This document shows, one piece after another, positions 25,018 to 37,964 of a DNA stretch of 64,000 nucleotides. This stretch comes from an uncultured virus (IMG/VR IMGVR_UViG_3300003937_000027) (Duplodnaviria; Heunggongvirae; Uroviricota; Caudoviricetes), in the IMG/VR virus record IMGVR_UViG_3300003937_000027. The stretch is one strand, 5' to 3'. The notes beneath the pieces were generated by a model. That model did no database searches. It was not told the DNA's origin and saw only the letters and a program-made list of their open reading frames with translations. The position numbers were made by a program, and so were the translations under genes. Every line of letters starts with the position of its first letter. The stretch's first letter is position 1.

Positions 25018-25626
25018 ATGAGTAAAGTACTCAAATATATAATAATTGGTTTATTAAGTGTCACGCTTGCAAATTGTTCAAGCAATACTTATAAAATCAA
25101 AAAAGAAAGCAAGAATCAGGTACTAAAAGTTCCTTCTTGGTATATGAAAGACTATTCCGAGAATAAAGAATGTGGTACTAAAATGTTCGGCAAAAAGAAA
25201 GACAAAAAATGTGTCTTCGGTGTCGGAACTTCTACATCACCTGACCTAGAATTGGCAATTGACAAGGCGACAATGATCGCTAAGGCTGAAGTTGCTGATA
25301 AGATAAAAGGGGAGATGAATAAGAAGGCAAAGATTTTTACTACCGAGTTAGGTAAATCTCAAACCAAAACTGTTGTAACAGATGTTGAAACAACTATAGT
25401 AAACATTATTAAGAATACACCAGTACGTGGTTATGAAGTATTTAAGCAAGAGGTAACTTTAACGAAAAATGGTTACTACCGTGCTTGGATAGGATTAAGA
25501 TTGCCTATGGGACCATACAACAAGATGTACAATTATTCTTTAGAAGAAATAGTTGACGCTTACAAGTTAAAAGAACTTGCTGAAAAATCGTATGATGAAG
25601 TAGAGATAATTGCTAATGAGCAGTAA
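25018..25626 (+). CDS. LPP20-family lipoprotein
   Basis: Lipobox LANC; VPSWY, GVG.S.S.DL..A..KA...AKAE.A. Confidence 0.7.
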   Translation: MSKVLKYIIIGLLSVTLANCSSNTYKIKKESKNQVLKVPSWYMKDYSENKECGTKMFGKKKDKKCVFGVGTSTSPDLELAIDKATMIAKAEVADKIKGEMNKKAKIFTTELGKSQTKTVVTDVETTIVNIIKNTPVRGYEVFKQEVTLTKNGYYRAWIGLRLPMGPYNKMYNYSLEEIVDAYKLKELAEKSYDEVEIIANEQ

Positions 25627-25885
25627 AATCCAAATATACTCAAAGCCTAATTGTACTTATTGTACAAAATCAAAACACTTGATGAAAACGTTAGGCTTTG
25701 AATACGAAGAACATATGTTTGGGAAAGATTTTACTACACCTGAACAGTTATTTGAGGCAATAGGTAAACAAGTACGAACTATGCCTCAAATTGTTATAGA
25801 AGATAAACATATCGGCGGCTATAACGAATTAATAGAGTATTTTGCCGATAAGAAGTTAGTAAATTACAAAGGTGAAAAAATATAA
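25616..25885 (+). CDS. nrdC: glutaredoxin
   Basis: IYSKPNCTYC, RTMPQI, HIGGY. Confidence 0.9.
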   Translation: MSSKIQIYSKPNCTYCTKSKHLMKTLGFEYEEHMFGKDFTTPEQLFEAIGKQVRTMPQIVIEDKHIGGYNELIEYFADKKLVNYKGEKI

Positions 25886-26297
25886 TATGAGTGATGATGG
25901 ACAATTAGAATTTGATTTTGGGTTAGAATCTAAAATACCCGATAATGTAATATTATTTCCTAAAATACCTTTACGAAGACCTAATTGGGCCCAACAAAAA
26001 TTAGACGCTAAAAAACAAGATATGTTGAGAAGACAACACAATCAGGTTTACGTACAGGCCATTACAGAACAATTAACTGAACAGATGTTATTAAGATTAA
26101 GAGAAGAAAACATTAACATAACAACAAAAGAATTTTTAAGTGACTATAAGTTGTCACTAGAGGCGCTTAAGTCTATGTTGCTTAGGGCAGTACATATGAA
26201 ACACCCATTACAACAACGTGTAGATAGGGCGGTCAAATGTAAACAAGGAGAAGGTAAGGACGTATATGCCATTACCATTGACTATAACAAATTTTAA
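25872..26297 (+). CDS. hypothetical protein
   Basis: NVILFP and HPLQ motifs typical of T4-like marine phage ORFs. Confidence 0.6.
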   Translation: MKKYNMSDDGQLEFDFGLESKIPDNVILFPKIPLRRPNWAQQKLDAKKQDMLRRQHNQVYVQAITEQLTEQMLLRLREENINITTKEFLSDYKLSLEALKSMLLRAVHMKHPLQQRVDRAVKCKQGEGKDVYAITIDYNKF

Positions 26298-26534
26298 ATT
26301 AGATAACAATATGCGTAACATTTATATAATTGCAAATATATTAATCTGTCTGGCTGAACATAGTTTAAGAGGACTAAACGCATGGACAAGGAGGGTTATG
26401 GGCGAATGCCTGAAGACACCTTGGGCAGTTTTGAGTAGGGACCTATCTTGCAATAGATGGACTCTTCCTGGAAGATTGTGGGTGAGTTCCAACAAATCCC
26501 ACGACAGACACATATTGTTATCTAATTTAAAATT
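26290..26534. ncRNA. candidate structured ncRNA bounded by a perfect 24-bp inverted repeat
   Basis: AATTTTAAATTAGATAACAATATG (26290-26313) is the exact reverse complement of 26511-26534; GC-rich interior with several hairpins. Confidence 0.55.
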
Positions 26535-26628
26535 ACAGAATTCCATAAAGCACTTTGGGATAATTGCTAGTACTGGCAAAGTTAGCAATTCTAATTATAA
26601 TGCCACAATAGAAAAGGAGATTTAAACA

Positions 26629-26961
26629 ATGTTTAAATTTTTATTTAAAAACGACTCATTAAGAGTTGTATCAAAATCTAAAAGAAAATCTACTAGAGGT
26701 AGAAAAACTTTATCAAAAAGAGTTAAAGTTTTAAATCTTTTAAACAAAGGCGAATCTGTTACTTGGAAGACTTTAAGAAGCAGATTTGATCTAGTGTCTC
26801 CAAGAGCACTAGTTGACACATTGAGATCAGAAGGTAATATGATCTATGTTAACAAATCAGCAAAAGGAACATCTTATAGAATAGGTGAACCTACAAAAGC
26901 GATAATCGCTGCTGGGATCAAAAAATTATATGGTACTCCGTACGCATATAAAACTGCCTAA
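26629..26961 (+). CDS. winged helix-turn-helix DNA-binding protein
   Basis: KVLNLL..G..VTW..L..RF.L.SPRA.V..LR.EG.MIY...YRIG.P; AAGGAG RBS. Confidence 0.65.
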   Translation: MFKFLFKNDSLRVVSKSKRKSTRGRKTLSKRVKVLNLLNKGESVTWKTLRSRFDLVSPRALVDTLRSEGNMIYVNKSAKGTSYRIGEPTKAIIAAGIKKLYGTPYAYKTA

Positions 26962-26972
26962 TACTCATTGAG

Positions 26973-27009
26973 TATAAATAGAGGTATAGGGGTAGGGAGA
27001 CTTACCCCT
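26973..27009 (+). promoter_or_regulatory. late promoter TATAAATA followed by a GNRA-capped hairpin (AGGGGTAGG-GAGA-CTTACCCCT)
   Basis: Read directly. Confidence 0.65.
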
Positions 27010-27037
27010 TTACACATAACAAAATGAGGAGGCAAAT

Positions 27038-27526
27038 ATGCCAATGACATCCGCACAATTAAACGCAGGTATGGACACATCAGGATCAGGTGCTCCACTA
27101 CTACACGAAATCTTACTAAAAGTAAACAACGCAAAAGACAAATCCCAAAAAATTGAGGCTCTGAAAAAGAACGATTCAGTACCTTTAAGACAAATTTTAA
27201 AAGGTGCTTTTGATCCTAGTATCAAGTGGGATTTACCAGAAGGTACGCCACCATATAGAGAAAATGACGCACCAGCAGGTACAGAACACACGTCCCTATT
27301 TACAGAAGCCAAAAGATTATGGCACTTTGTAGAGGGAGCAGATAAGAAAACTTCCAGAACGAAGAAAGAAATGATGTTTATTCAATTGCTTGAAGGATTA
27401 CACGCTAATGACGCTAAACTTATGATTTCAGTTAAAGAAAAAGAACTGAATCTCGTATATAAAGGGTTAACAGACGCTGTGGTTAAAGAAGCATTTGGAT
27501 GGAATGCAGATTACAAAACATCCTAA
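27038..27526 (+). CDS. conserved T4-like hypothetical protein (DUF6433-like)
   Basis: FDPSIKW.LPEG.PPY, FIQLLEGLH..DA. Confidence 0.7.
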   Translation: MPMTSAQLNAGMDTSGSGAPLLHEILLKVNNAKDKSQKIEALKKNDSVPLRQILKGAFDPSIKWDLPEGTPPYRENDAPAGTEHTSLFTEAKRLWHFVEGADKKTSRTKKEMMFIQLLEGLHANDAKLMISVKEKELNLVYKGLTDAVVKEAFGWNADYKTS

Positions 27527-27922: not shown

Positions 27923-28235
27923 ATCATTTTTAATATTATTTCTAGTATTCATTTATACTTGGTCTTGGGCAATATTTAATGCTGTCAAGGCTGACGACTA
28001 TAACACCGCAGTTATTGGACACGTTATATCTGAAAAAATTAAAGGCACAAATATTGATACGTCATATATAATGGAGCAAGAGATAGAAAAACTTGTACAT
28101 AAGTTTGCTATTGATTCAGTATATATTTTGCAGGCATACCTTCCACAAATATTAGAAGGTGTTGCGAGTGATTTAAGATTAAAACTTGACGAAAAATACA
28201 AAAAGGAAATTTTAAATGGCGAAAACAGTAACTAA
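27891..28235 (+). CDS. exported hypothetical protein (start probably 27915)
   Basis: Signal peptide. Confidence 0.55.
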   Translation: MKLLMRPLMRKSFLILFLVFIYTWSWAIFNAVKADDYNTAVIGHVISEKIKGTNIDTSYIMEQEIEKLVHKFAIDSVYILQAYLPQILEGVASDLRLKLDEKYKKEILNGENSN

Positions 28236-28644
28236 AAAAACTAGAAAAAAGAAGGCAATTAAGTTAAAGAAAAAACTTAAAAGAGAATTTTCTTTAAAAA
28301 GAAAATATAAGACCACCTACAAAGATATTAGGATTTGGTTTAAACAATTTAATGACACCGTATTTGAAGGTAAACTATCTCCATTCGGACAGGTAGAAAT
28401 AAAAGATTTAGCAAGAGAAAAATGTATAGGACAAGTAGTGACCTTGGAATGGAAAAGAAAAGGAACAAGACTTTTTAGATTAGAGATGTTACCTGACTAT
28501 CCTGAAAAGAAGGATTTTTTAGATACTTTAGTACACGAAATGGTACATTTATATCAAATGCAAAATTTAGGAGATACAGGAAACCATAACGATTTGTTTT
28601 GGTCGTTTGAACCAAAAGTAAACTACGTAGGTTTACGACTATAA
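28216..28644 (+). CDS. SprT-like zinc metalloprotease
   Basis: FN..VF.GKL, TLVHEMVHLYQ, H...F. Confidence 0.8.
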   Translation: MAKTVTKKTRKKKAIKLKKKLKREFSLKRKYKTTYKDIRIWFKQFNDTVFEGKLSPFGQVEIKDLAREKCIGQVVTLEWKRKGTRLFRLEMLPDYPEKKDFLDTLVHEMVHLYQMQNLGDTGNHNDLFWSFEPKVNYVGLRL

Positions 28645-34839: not shown

Positions 34840-35283
34840 ATGAAGAAATTTCTAGCTTCTATATTAATGTCAGTTTTATTAATATTTGTTGTAATGCAAT
34901 TTGCGAATGCTGAAGAACCAAAACTACTTGATGAAGAACCAAAGATAAAGAGAGAATCACCTGAAGTAACGCCATATGAAGAAGGCAGACTTTATTGGAT
35001 GCAAATGCCAGTTGTTTGTGGTACTACTAAAACAGTAAAAGATTATATTGATGAACATAAATTTATATTAGTTTATGTTGGTGTTGGTAAACAAGGTGGT
35101 AAAGATACTGGCGAACCAGTTTACTTGATAAGTGAATATGTAACGCAAGATATGAAACAATCTTTGTCAGTAACAACAACATTGACATTAACAGAATCGT
35201 GTATAATGTTAAGAGGTTTTGATTTACAGTTTAGAAAATCACCTTTAACAAAGGGGACTTCAATATTGGAGCTCCAAACTTGA
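34840..35283 (+). CDS. exported hypothetical protein
   Basis: Signal peptide ending ANA; PVVCG...SCI. Confidence 0.6.
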   Translation: MKKFLASILMSVLLIFVVMQFANAEEPKLLDEEPKIKRESPEVTPYEEGRLYWMQMPVVCGTTKTVKDYIDEHKFILVYVGVGKQGGKDTGEPVYLISEYVTQDMKQSLSVTTTLTLTESCIMLRGFDLQFRKSPLTKGTSILELQT

Positions 35284-35284
35284 A

Positions 35285-35525
35285 ATTTGACGTTGAAGAA
35301 TAGACAATAACTAGTGAGGACGTGGGTGCGATTCCCACCACCTCCACCAATTCAAAACACATTATAGTGTGCTTTAAGGGGGTGAGTAGATTCGACTGCT
35401 ACTAAAACTATTTGGAGTTAAATCGCTGACAGCGTACTGTTAAAACTATAAACGACAATCACATAGATTATCGTATGGCTGCTTAGGCAGTCGGGGTTTG
35501 CCTGTACCTTGCAACAGAAACAGGC
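35285..35525 (+). ncRNA. ssrA: tmRNA, circularly permuted two-piece type
   Basis: T-arm GTGGG-TGCGATT-CCCAC and acceptor 3' strand CACCTCC-A-CCA (ends 35349) lie upstream of the 5' strand GGGGGTG (starts 35378); G3:U70 Ala identity pair; tag frame 35454-35486 reads DNHIDYRMAA*. Confidence 0.88.
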
Positions 35526-35553
35526 TTGACATTTTACGCTAATATGATATAAT
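35526..35553 (+). promoter_or_regulatory. sigma70 promoter TTGACA-16-TATAAT
   Basis: Consensus hexamers. Confidence 0.7.
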
Positions 35554-36762: not shown

Positions 36763-37128
36763 ATGTCAGATAGATTCCCTACAGCAGAAGAAAGAGCATT
36801 TGGTAAAATCAAAGAGAAGATTGACCCTATTGAAGAAAAACTAGATGAGAAGATTGCTAAACTAAACAGCAGCCGTGTATATAAAAAGGTTACACCAAAA
36901 GGTGACCTGTCTTGGTATGTAAAATGGGTATCAGTTTTTCTTATACTGTTTGCAACTATGGCCAGAAGTGTAGGTACAATACCACAGTATGATATGTGGT
37001 TAGGTTTGTTTGGTACAGCAGGTTGGGCATACGTAGGATTCTTATGGCACGATAGAGCATTATTATTTTTGAATGCAATATTGGTATCTTTATTATTATT
37101 AGGATTGACGAATTATTATTTTTTATGA
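36763..37128 (+). CDS. small membrane protein (DUF6552-like)
   Basis: SWYVKW...GW..VG.LWHDRAL..LN. Confidence 0.65.
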   Translation: MSDRFPTAEERAFGKIKEKIDPIEEKLDEKIAKLNSSRVYKKVTPKGDLSWYVKWVSVFLILFATMARSVGTIPQYDMWLGLFGTAGWAYVGFLWHDRALLFLNAILVSLLLLGLTNYYFL

Positions 37129-37964
37129 TTAGAACATTTTTAATTGGTAATGGTGAGAGTCGTAAAGACTTTGATTTAAATGTATTGAAACCTTATGGCA
37201 AGATATATGGTTGTAATGCCATTTATAGAGACCATCCTGACCTATGTGACGCATTGATAGCTGTTGACGCTGGTATGATACACGAATTATATCATAATGG
37301 TATGTGTGCTGATGTGCCTTGCTATTTTAGAGAATGGACCAAAGTACCTATTCATATGTATGATACAATGTTACAAAGTATGCTACAAACACAAAACAAA
37401 GAACAGGCTGATTTGGTTGTAGAGAACGAAAGAGGTGAGAGCGACCACTTTGTTATGAACGCTCATACTATTAAAGGTCCTGTTGTCATACGAAAAGCAA
37501 ATGATGATAGAGAGAAAAAAAATATAGACAATGCTCACATATATGTGTCTTGGATAAAAGAACCAGACAAGTCACACAATATATCTGAATGTTGTTTTGG
37601 CGCTGAAGATTTAGGTTGGTGTGCAGGTACTACAAGTGGGTATGTTGCTAGTCTAGTTGAAGCACCAGATGAAATGTATCTAATAGGACAAGACCTTATA
37701 TCAGATACAAAGACAGTTAACAATCTATACAAATCTACAAGGTATTATGTATCAGAACATTTTGAGCCCAATCCGTCAGGTATATGGGAAACAGAATGGC
37801 TCACACTTATGCAGAACAACCCTAACGTTAAGTTTTACAAAGTGAATAAGGCATTTGATGATAAACCTACTAATCAAAAAGTAGAGAGATTCGCAGTACA
37901 GGAAGACAAGAATTTAGAGTATATCACCCAAGCACAGCTGCTTGACAAAATGAGTAAATGGTGA
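37125..37964 (+). CDS. conserved T4-like hypothetical protein upstream of gp32
   Basis: IGNGESR..FDL, YGCNAIYRD, YLIG.D...NN.YK.T..Y. Confidence 0.7.
   Translation: MIRTFLIGNGESRKDFDLNVLKPYGKIYGCNAIYRDHPDLCDALIAVDAGMIHELYHNGMCADVPCYFREWTKVPIHMYDTMLQSMLQTQNKEQADLVVENERGESDHFVMNAHTIKGPVVIRKANDDREKKNIDNAHIYVSWIKEPDKSHNISECCFGAEDLGWCAGTTSGYVASLVEAPDEMYLIGQDLISDTKTVNNLYKSTRYYVSEHFEPNPSGIWETEWLTLMQNNPNVKFYKVNKAFDDKPTNQKVERFAVQEDKNLEYITQAQLLDKMSKW

Follow-up and report, generated by a model that had tools for sequence, protein, structure and literature searches.

Why is a short, GC-rich segment of a tailed-phage genome enclosed by a perfect inverted repeat of 24 nucleotides (nt)? The segment in question lies at positions 26290–26534 of a 64,000-nt stretch of DNA, hereafter the window, from an uncultured virus of the Caudoviricetes (IMG/VR record IMGVR_UViG_3300003937_000027). 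An initial annotation of this DNA took the segment most likely for an undescribed phage noncoding RNA (ncRNA) freed from a long closing stem, and named an invertible segment or an insertion like a miniature inverted-repeat transposable element (MITE) as alternatives. The analysis described here bears out that main inference: the inverted repeat is very probably the terminal stem (P1) of a stand-alone structured ncRNA gene of approximately 193 nt on the + strand. The evidence consists of the absence of any Rfam match, covariation of the paired positions, the absence of codon-type conservation, a promoter of its own in most homologues, and RNA ends at 26319 and 26511.

The two arms of the repeat, 26290–26316 (left, the 5' arm of P1) and 26508–26534 (right, the 3' arm), are 27 nt long and 96% complementary, and 24 nt within them pair perfectly. 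The spacing is 191 nt between the 27-nt arms, or 197 nt between the perfect 24-mers. No other inverted repeat within 25500–27500 comes close to it in length or quality. As had been described, the left arm covers the TAA stop codon (26295–26297) of the upstream open reading frame (ORF; 25872–26297); it also overlaps a −10-like TAAATT at 26295–26300. The interior is indeed richer in GC than its flanks, with fractions in 100-nt windows of 0.48–0.49 at 26350–26499 versus 0.24–0.36 just outside the element. Both strands fold more stably than their shuffled counterparts (z values of −4.5 for the + strand and −5.5 for the − strand), which is largely due to the long stem.

Among isolate phages, blastn matched the interior to Pelagibacter phage HTVC008M, with an identity of 74.7%. 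Viral contigs were scanned for exact motifs, and the individual scans yielded 46, 40, at least 119, and at least 120 loci. Nine unrelated matches were removed before alignment, namely L006, L013, L015, L017, L021, L026, L038, and L040 from a 17-mer scan and L122 from the scan with motif 3, after which 115 distinct homologue cores of 245 nt were in hand. Additional, more divergent homologues adjoin relatives of the gene that precedes the RNA in HTVC008M. Six of the removed matches carry giant-virus-bin labels (L006, L013, L015, L021, L026, and L038); there the 17-mer GGGTTATGGGCGAATGC is inside what is apparently one conserved protein-coding gene, mutually alignable among the six and unrelated to the RNA. 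Another viral contig, L358, contains, after locus position ~1820, the first ~90 nt of the RNA followed by GTT/GTTGTT low-complexity repeats, which looks like an assembly artefact.

The alignment strongly supports a conserved RNA fold. RNAalifold, applied to 82 sequences, placed 47 pairs in its consensus, and compensatory double changes occur in 28 of these. In an assumption-free ranking of column pairs over the 115 cores by mutual information with average product correction (MI-APC), the top 14 column pairs were all at least 92% Watson-Crick or GU. The structure whose helices are named below, comprising 59 pairs, was evaluated on 58 representatives with mutual identity below 93%. Its cells were paired in 94.4% of cases, compared with 76.3% in shuffled alignments; double changes occurred in 39 of the 59 pairs, compared with 31.1; and the covariation score was 0.485, compared with 0.162. 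None of the 500 shuffles reached the observed value in any of these measures. When the 3' partners were slid by 1–3 columns, only 39–50% of the cells were paired and the covariation scores fell to 0.06–0.11. Covariation, which the initial annotation proposed to test with R-scape, was assessed by these measures on collected homologues, and the pairs covary beyond both the shuffled and the slid controls. Many G-U pairs lie on the + strand in the RNAalifold prediction as well as in the named structure, which indicates that the RNA is read from the + strand. The RNA consists of roughly ten helices and two pseudoknots, and its fold is kept by compensatory changes.

The first hairpin after the 5' arm of P1 is P2 (26320–26328 paired with 26337–26345), in which all nine pairs show double changes and whose apex carries the palindrome TTGCAA at 26330–26335. 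P3 (26346–26350/26503–26507) closes the core, again with double changes in every one of its five pairs. P4 (26353–26355/26379–26381), supported by covariation, encloses P5 (26361–26364/26373–26376), which has double changes in all four pairs, is 99.6% paired, and carries the loop UUAAGAGG at 26365–26372. P6 (26382–26391/26419–26429) contains an invariant internal loop, GAGGGUUA opposite AAGACA, and P7 (26399–26403/26408–26412) with its GAAU loop is located within the same unit; across this helix 6 unit (26382–26429), 11 of 18 pairs show double changes and 97.5% of the cells are paired. It should be mentioned that position 26399, the Y of UUAYGG, covaries with 26406, the third base of the P7 loop (U/A in 83 sequences and C/G in 32). 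Both positions are within one small hairpin, and this may be a tertiary or an alternative contact.

The 3' half of the core begins with P8' (26431–26432/26474–26475) and P8 (26438–26441/26466–26469), both supported by covariation. Between them is an invariant AGUA/GAA internal loop (26433–26437/26470–26473), which we take to resemble the loop E motif. P9 (26445–26448/26455–26458) is a variable hairpin read by eye from the alignment, and P10 (26478–26482/26498–26502) is a covarying hairpin. The CUCU stretch preceding the 3' strand of P8 (26462–26465) pairs with the P5 loop (26368–26371) to form the pseudoknot PK2, found by MI-APC and included in the named structure. At its centre is the long-range pair 26370–26463, which is AU in 76 sequences, CG in 34, and UA in five, and hence 100% Watson-Crick. 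The other pseudoknot, PK1, joins the 3' flank of P9 (26456–26460) to the P10 loop (26489–26493), whose invariant CCA faces an invariant UGG at 26458–26460. The bases immediately 5' of this UGG covary with the P10 loop, as seen in the combinations AUUGG/CCAAU, CUUGG/CCAAG, GUUGG/CCAAC, AUGGA/UCCAU, and CUGG/CCAG. The CC/GG base pairs of P9 were set aside because the same GG is used by PK1.

Six nested helices had been proposed from the single sequence. Four of them are the P3 (TGTCTG/CAGACA), P6 (CAAGG/CCTTG), P7 (GGC-GAAT-GCC), and P10 (GTGGG/CCCAC) helices recovered here by covariation. The other two, TCTTC/GAAGA and GAGT/ACTC, were rejected for want of covariation support, and their bases are located in P8, the loop-E-like internal loop, and PK2.

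In all lineages the 5' leader and the 3' trailer of the RNA are complementary to each other, and the length of P1 varies among them: ~11 base pairs (bp) in the HTVC008M group, 19–22 bp in several others, and 24–27 bp in the window. The two latter ranges correspond to the long duplex expected of an RNase III processing stem. The long forms extend back into the −10 box. When the window sequence is compared with its relatives L108 and L336, compensated changes are found on both arms. Pairing of cognate flanks gave a mean energy of −13.1 kcal/mol, as opposed to −9.0 kcal/mol for non-cognate flanks.

The RNA is also found among environmental transcripts. Parts of the region are found in six RNA runs, and four metatranscriptome runs from four studies were compared over 25600–27400. 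In two RNA studies (X17 and X18), one contig each of 193 nt covers exactly 26319–26511, with no differences and no loose ends. In a third (X19), the contig of a close relative has the sequencing adapter joined directly before the position corresponding to 26319. The 5' end at 26319 is one base before P2 and two nt beyond the top of the stem, and the 3' end at 26511 is four bases into the right arm, which suggests that P1 is trimmed off. Identical ends in independent studies, together with the adapter junctions, argue for a discrete RNA without the P1 arms.

Most homologues have their own promoter. Among 125 distinct upstream regions, 108 match the sigma-70 pattern of TTGACA (at least five of six bases), a spacer of 16–18 nt, and TAnnnT; the exact TTGACA occurs in 77 of the 125, and most of the non-matching regions have close variants. 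The −10 element ends 15–19 nt before P2. We read this sigma-70-type promoter of the relatives as an early promoter. Alignment to the promoter-bearing relatives suggests that the counterpart of the −10 element in the window is TAAATT at 26295–26300. TTGACT at 26279–26284 was considered as a −35 element of the window with a shortened spacer and rejected, since these bases lie within the upstream ORF and are also found where the RNA is missing, at the empty site described below.

The initial annotation could not match the element to tRNA, RNase P, signal recognition particle (SRP) RNA, 6S, or a known ribozyme and suggested a scan of Rfam; that scan has now been run and no family was matched. A permissive cmscan of 25800–27000 with Rfam 15 gave nothing better than E = 1; the best match inside the element (26308–26353) scored 11.4 bits, for a gathering score of 442, at E = 4.6. 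At gathering thresholds, the only match in the whole window was a transfer-messenger RNA (tmRNA) at 35235–35528, and ARAGORN found neither tRNA nor tmRNA at the element. The Rfam 15 families that the element does not match include tRNA, tmRNA, RNase P, SRP RNA, 6S, Y RNA, HEARO, GOLLD, ROOL, IMES, and the known ribozymes and riboswitches. The most conserved core motif was found in one of 185,579 prokaryote species' genomes, and this sole cellular match (Haloparvum, L210) was rejected as an unrelated GC-rich stretch.

Literature searches, including one for HTVC008M together with noncoding RNA, returned no description of this RNA. The article PMC12753301 has no mention of the terms noncoding, intergenic, or sRNA, and none of six marine or phage terms was found in a 2026 preprint on noncoding sequence space. 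In the accessible part of Fremin et al. 2023 (PMC10690425), a catalogue of 8,495 candidate structures, 29–151 nt in length, is reported from the same viral contig collection, 12 of them upstream of gp32. A motif search of the readable supplements of that study, which left its alignment archives outside its scope, gave no match; because those archives were outside, fragments of the RNA may already be listed there without a name. None of the literature searched describes the RNA at its full 193 nt or gives its fold, ends, or distribution, again with the Fremin 2023 alignment archives outside the scope.

The phage of the window corresponds to a virus record of 170.8 kb (G001), which encodes a major capsid protein of the T4 type. 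Individual records were searched with a covariance model derived from the 58 representatives, and a single copy turned up in each of the following five: G001, HTVC008M, 023Pt_psg01, and two further contigs. The same search was negative for Pelagibacter phage Mosig, Methylophilales phage Melnitz, Synechococcus phage S-P4, or Prochlorococcus phage P-SSM3. A divergent subfamily resides in genomes of ~60 kb encoding PolA, which correspond to the HTVC023P-type pelagiphages of Wittmers et al. 2022 (PMC9599517), as far as the accessible part of that article goes; the word noncoding is absent from the article. The RNA is carried by two unrelated phage lineages, the T4-like pelagimyophages and the HTVC023P-type podophages, and was found only in phage sequence.

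The surroundings of the RNA differ considerably among these genomes, with at least three clearly different contexts. In HTVC008M its neighbours are a hypothetical gene on one side and gene 32 on the other, and part of it is annotated as a coding sequence (CDS) of 56 amino acids (aa). It directly follows the same upstream gene in 22 of 23 loci of HTVC008M-type genomes, the 23rd being a broken assembly. In 023Pt_psg01 it occupies a 409-nt gap on the strand opposite to all surrounding genes and has its own TTGACA-N17-TATATA promoter. In the window it follows the ORF at 25872–26297 (+, 141 aa, no family), which is not part of the RNA. This ORF is unrelated to the HTVC008M upstream gene, and an obligate partner protein was therefore rejected. 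The HTVC008M gene (phrog_30607) stands ahead of the RNA in most myophage lineages, and its window homologue (36% identity) is located at ~37128–37883 (G001:70492–71247), 10.8 kb from the RNA. This distance and the unrelated upstream ORF mean that the RNA has no fixed neighbour.

Five relatives of the upstream ORF were found. Four carry the RNA in the same orientation and the fifth, L337, does not: there AAAATTTTAA runs straight into GAATTCC, so that 26298–26537 is absent and the downstream gene is kept. The TTGACT of the upstream ORF is retained at this empty site. TTAA, which is palindromic, is present on both sides of the module; in L101 the corresponding bases are TTAG and CTAA, which are complementary and not direct repeats. 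An empty site between syntenic genes points to a self-contained, moron-like cassette, and the RNA gene behaves as such a cassette, present or absent between genes that are otherwise adjacent.

The apex of P2 deserves attention. A palindromic hexamer is present there in 114 of the 115 distinct sequences, as TTGCAA in 79, TTCGAA in 33, and CTGCAG and TGTACA in one each; the one exception, L093, retains the inner four bases. Below the apex, the P2 stem varies freely and includes G-U pairs, which indicates that the palindrome is a feature of the RNA and not of the DNA. A kissing-loop dimer requires self-complementarity that persists while the sequence itself changes, as in the dimerisation site of HIV-1. 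The predicted homodimer, formed by kissing of two P2 tips, is rated about one in two. This is because the outer pair of the palindrome might merely extend P2 around a tetraloop, in which case only the inner four bases, in three variants, argue for self-pairing.

How might such an RNA be made and what might it do? The 5' leader and the 3' trailer would pair as P1, and a host nuclease would then remove both; this nuclease could be RNase III, with subsequent trimming, or RNase E, and self-cleavage is also considered below. In the sublineage of the window, P1 seems to have grown to 24–27 bp. Few large RNAs have an intricate fold with conserved tertiary contacts, and those of known function (ribozymes, riboswitches, RNase P, and tmRNA) mostly act directly as RNA. 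The compact fold with two pseudoknots, the invariant internal loops, the excision, and the spread across two families of SAR11 phages suggest that the RNA acts in trans on a specific partner and is neither a base-pairing small RNA nor a switch. We tentatively propose, with a confidence that does not quite reach the halfway mark, a stable trans-acting RNA that targets a host factor of SAR11 or a protein of the phage early in infection, serving as decoy or scaffold and probably working as a homodimer through the P2 loop. Put in full, the RNA might represent an undescribed class of nuclease-excised, double-pseudoknotted trans RNA that forms a kissing-loop homodimer early in SAR11 infection, where it would, for instance, capture a host protein or RNA or act in catalysis, and that has spread as an RNA moron between unrelated pelagiphage families. 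We hold this complete picture to have a little under an even chance of being right.

Several observations weigh against the reading of the locus as a processed, stand-alone, trans-acting RNA. None of the results presented here shows the function of the RNA. PK1 fails in part, with 15 of the 58 cells unpaired at two columns, and sequences L242 and L276 do not fit it. The difference in P1 pairing between cognate and non-cognate flanks is modest when medians are considered (−9.7 versus −8.3 kcal/mol). The sublineage of the window, which makes up six of the 125 upstream regions, does not have a good promoter. The RNA evidence consists of assembled contigs, which give neither the strand nor the true abundance and do not separate primary from processed ends, and contig ends can also arise as assembly breaks. 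The ends at 26319 and 26511 are not the in-stem cut with a 2-nt stagger that is expected of RNase III, which later trimming could explain. In addition, no intrinsic terminator was found after the RNA gene, and the RNA contig of one relative continues for more than 600 nt beyond the RNA. This read-on suggests that part of the transcripts double as leaders for the genes that follow.

Among the other explanations, a ribozyme, with chemistry of its own that makes one or both ends or acts on another RNA, survives best, and we still regard it as unlikely. The compact double-pseudoknot fold, the many invariant unpaired nucleotides, and the defined ends near the junction of P1 and the core would all be natural in a ribozyme. 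However, the element matches no known ribozyme family, no cleavage chemistry can be read from its sequence, and host nucleases are a simpler explanation for a stem that is cut twice, once on each strand.

Quite unlikely, too, is a cis-acting 5' leader, that is, a riboswitch or protein-binding leader for the downstream gene, such as gene 32 in HTVC008M. The position of the RNA just upstream of gp32 in HTVC008M-type genomes is what such a leader would require, as is the start codon within 10–20 nt after P1 in other lineages. The lack of a terminator and the contig that reads on downstream fit as well, and candidate structures upstream of gp32 genes are reported in the accessible part of Fremin 2023 (PMC10690425). 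Yet the downstream genes differ by lineage (gp32, a gene beginning MFDKFIY..., and a 110-aa basic protein) and form no consistent regulated class. The two genes next to it in 023Pt_psg01 are encoded on the other strand, so that the RNA is antisense to them and a simple role as a 5' leader is excluded there. Moreover, the discrete 193-nt species is separate from the downstream mRNA, whose 5' ends are at 26559–26565, and a P1 of 24–27 bp would be permanently formed and ill-suited to a switch.

A MITE-like or other mobile DNA element, in which the inverted repeats serve transposition and the RNA fold is secondary, is highly unlikely, and the corresponding suggestion of the initial annotation stands only in part. 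What remains of it is the mobility of the module, which is missing exactly from the close relative L337, is bordered by TTAA on both sides, and is found in several unrelated contexts and two phage families; terminal inverted repeats and the lack of coding capacity are likewise typical of such elements. What speaks against transposition is the single copy in five of five records and the behaviour of the end repeats, which evolve as a stem: the arms differ by lineage yet stay complementary by compensatory change, including the flanking TTAG/CTAA in L101, which looks more like a stem than a target-site duplication. In addition, the interior is under strong selection for RNA structure, and no transposase was found nearby.

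The possibility that a small protein is encoded is very remote, and the RNA gene is not protein-coding. ORFs do cover the element at 26266–26625 (+, 119 aa) and 26322–26588 (−, 88 aa), and in HTVC008M a 56-aa CDS extends from the promoter through the 5' half of the RNA. The two ORFs of the window had been called spurious on the grounds that both contain NFKLDNNM owing to the repeat, and we agree, as no conserved frame was found. No reading frame is open in all 115 sequences; the best one, on the + strand, is free of stops in 66 of them and interrupted in 49. Variable columns are distributed evenly over the three codon positions (42/64, 42/64, and 44/65), and hence there is no 3-nt periodicity. 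Codon-type conservation, which would have favoured a protein, was thus looked for across the 115 sequences and was absent, and the changes are compensatory across helices. The CDS in HTVC008M (AGE60342.1, hypothetical; L001 2458–2628, equivalent to KC465899 4993–5163) is probably a false gene call, because it starts inside the promoter of the RNA and overlaps its 5' half.

An invertible DNA segment between recombination sites, to which the long perfect inverted repeats had pointed, can practically be dismissed, because every locus examined has the same orientation relative to the flanking genes (all four relatives of the upstream ORF that carry the RNA, and all 22 HTVC008M-type loci that do) and the scan of ten neighbouring ORFs matched no recombinase family.

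Downstream of the RNA gene, a separate mRNA extends over 26559–26961 (+), with contig 5' ends at 26559–26565 in four RNA runs, and includes an ORF at 26629–26961 (+, 110 aa, phrog_4973). The start of this mRNA is at the foot of a hairpin (AATTGCTA...TAGCAATT, ~26562–26590), and X19 shows an adapter there; one run has an adapter junction at 26564. Since no well-placed −10 element precedes it, 26559–26565 probably marks either a site of processing or a 5' end that is protected. The stretch 25905–26270 of the upstream ORF is largely uncovered by the RNA runs, with nothing in X18, X19, and X20 and one short piece with differences in X17; it was not used as evidence. Neighbouring genes encode a glutaredoxin (PF00462; 25610–25885), a DUF6433 protein (27038–27526), and an SprT-like protein (28216–28644), an ordinary early-region set for a T4-like marine phage. 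Homologues of DUF6433 are found in 488 phage records, mostly of cyanophages.

The tmRNA mentioned above (35235–35528, +) is a permuted two-piece molecule of the alphaproteobacterial type, with scores of 87.7 bits for RF04321 and 83.4 bits for RF01849 and an ARAGORN tag of DNHIDYRMAA. A blastn search of this region against phages gave no match. A tmRNA has already been described for the pelagimyophage group, according to the accessible part of Buchholz 2022 (PMC9004378).

The RNA described here is common to two unrelated families of phages of SAR11 and is visibly made in the sea. SAR11 is the most abundant bacterial group of the surface ocean. With HTVC008M and its host in culture, the function of the RNA is directly testable. 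The locus is also a clean case of an RNA gene that moves between phages as a cassette, and the 56-aa hypothetical protein annotated there in HTVC008M probably corresponds to no gene. If the predicted self-pairing loop is true, the RNA would be a small, tractable addition to the natural RNA-only assemblies being solved by cryo-electron microscopy (cryo-EM).

GOLLD and ROOL RNAs are similar to the present RNA in being phage-borne, pseudoknotted, and highly structured, and in having no known function. Recent cryo-EM work reportedly shows them as homo-oligomers held by loop-loop contacts, an assembly that resembles the predicted self-pairing of the P2 loop. They are, however, ~580–800 nt in length, as compared with 193 nt here, have no similarity in sequence or by covariance model, and belong to hosts other than marine SAR11; furthermore, mature ends and a processing stem are seen for the SAR11-phage RNA. 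The processing stems of rRNA and of phage early transcripts, which are substrates of RNase III, share with it the long duplex formed by the flanks and a mature RNA without the duplex arms. The ends observed here differ from staggered in-stem cuts, and the released RNA is neither an rRNA nor a tRNA. The dimerisation initiation site of HIV-1 likewise has a hairpin apex with six self-complementary bases whose self-complementarity is kept as the sequence changes. Its biological context is unrelated; the dimer of the present RNA is a prediction, and the outer pair of the P2 palindrome may simply close a tetraloop.

Within the same phage group, the tmRNA and the glutamine riboswitch of the Melnitz-like phages and pelagimyophages (Buchholz 2022, PMC9004378) are the closest parallels, and the window itself carries a tmRNA. 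Those RNAs are at a separate locus and have unrelated structures, and the 193-nt RNA is not mentioned in the accessible part of that article. The candidates of Fremin 2023 (PMC10690425) come from the same viral contig collection, and some are marine and upstream of gp32. As given in the part of the article available, they are 29–151 nt in length and cis-regulatory within 25 nt of gp32, whereas the present RNA is 193 nt in length, has no fixed link to gp32, and in HTVC008M ends ~70 nt ahead of that gene. Finally, the RNA gene resembles phage morons, which are autonomous cassettes of a promoter plus a gene: it has its own promoter, is inserted between genes that are adjacent in a relative, and shows a patchy distribution. 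It differs from them in that no terminator was found and in that its cargo is an RNA, not a protein.

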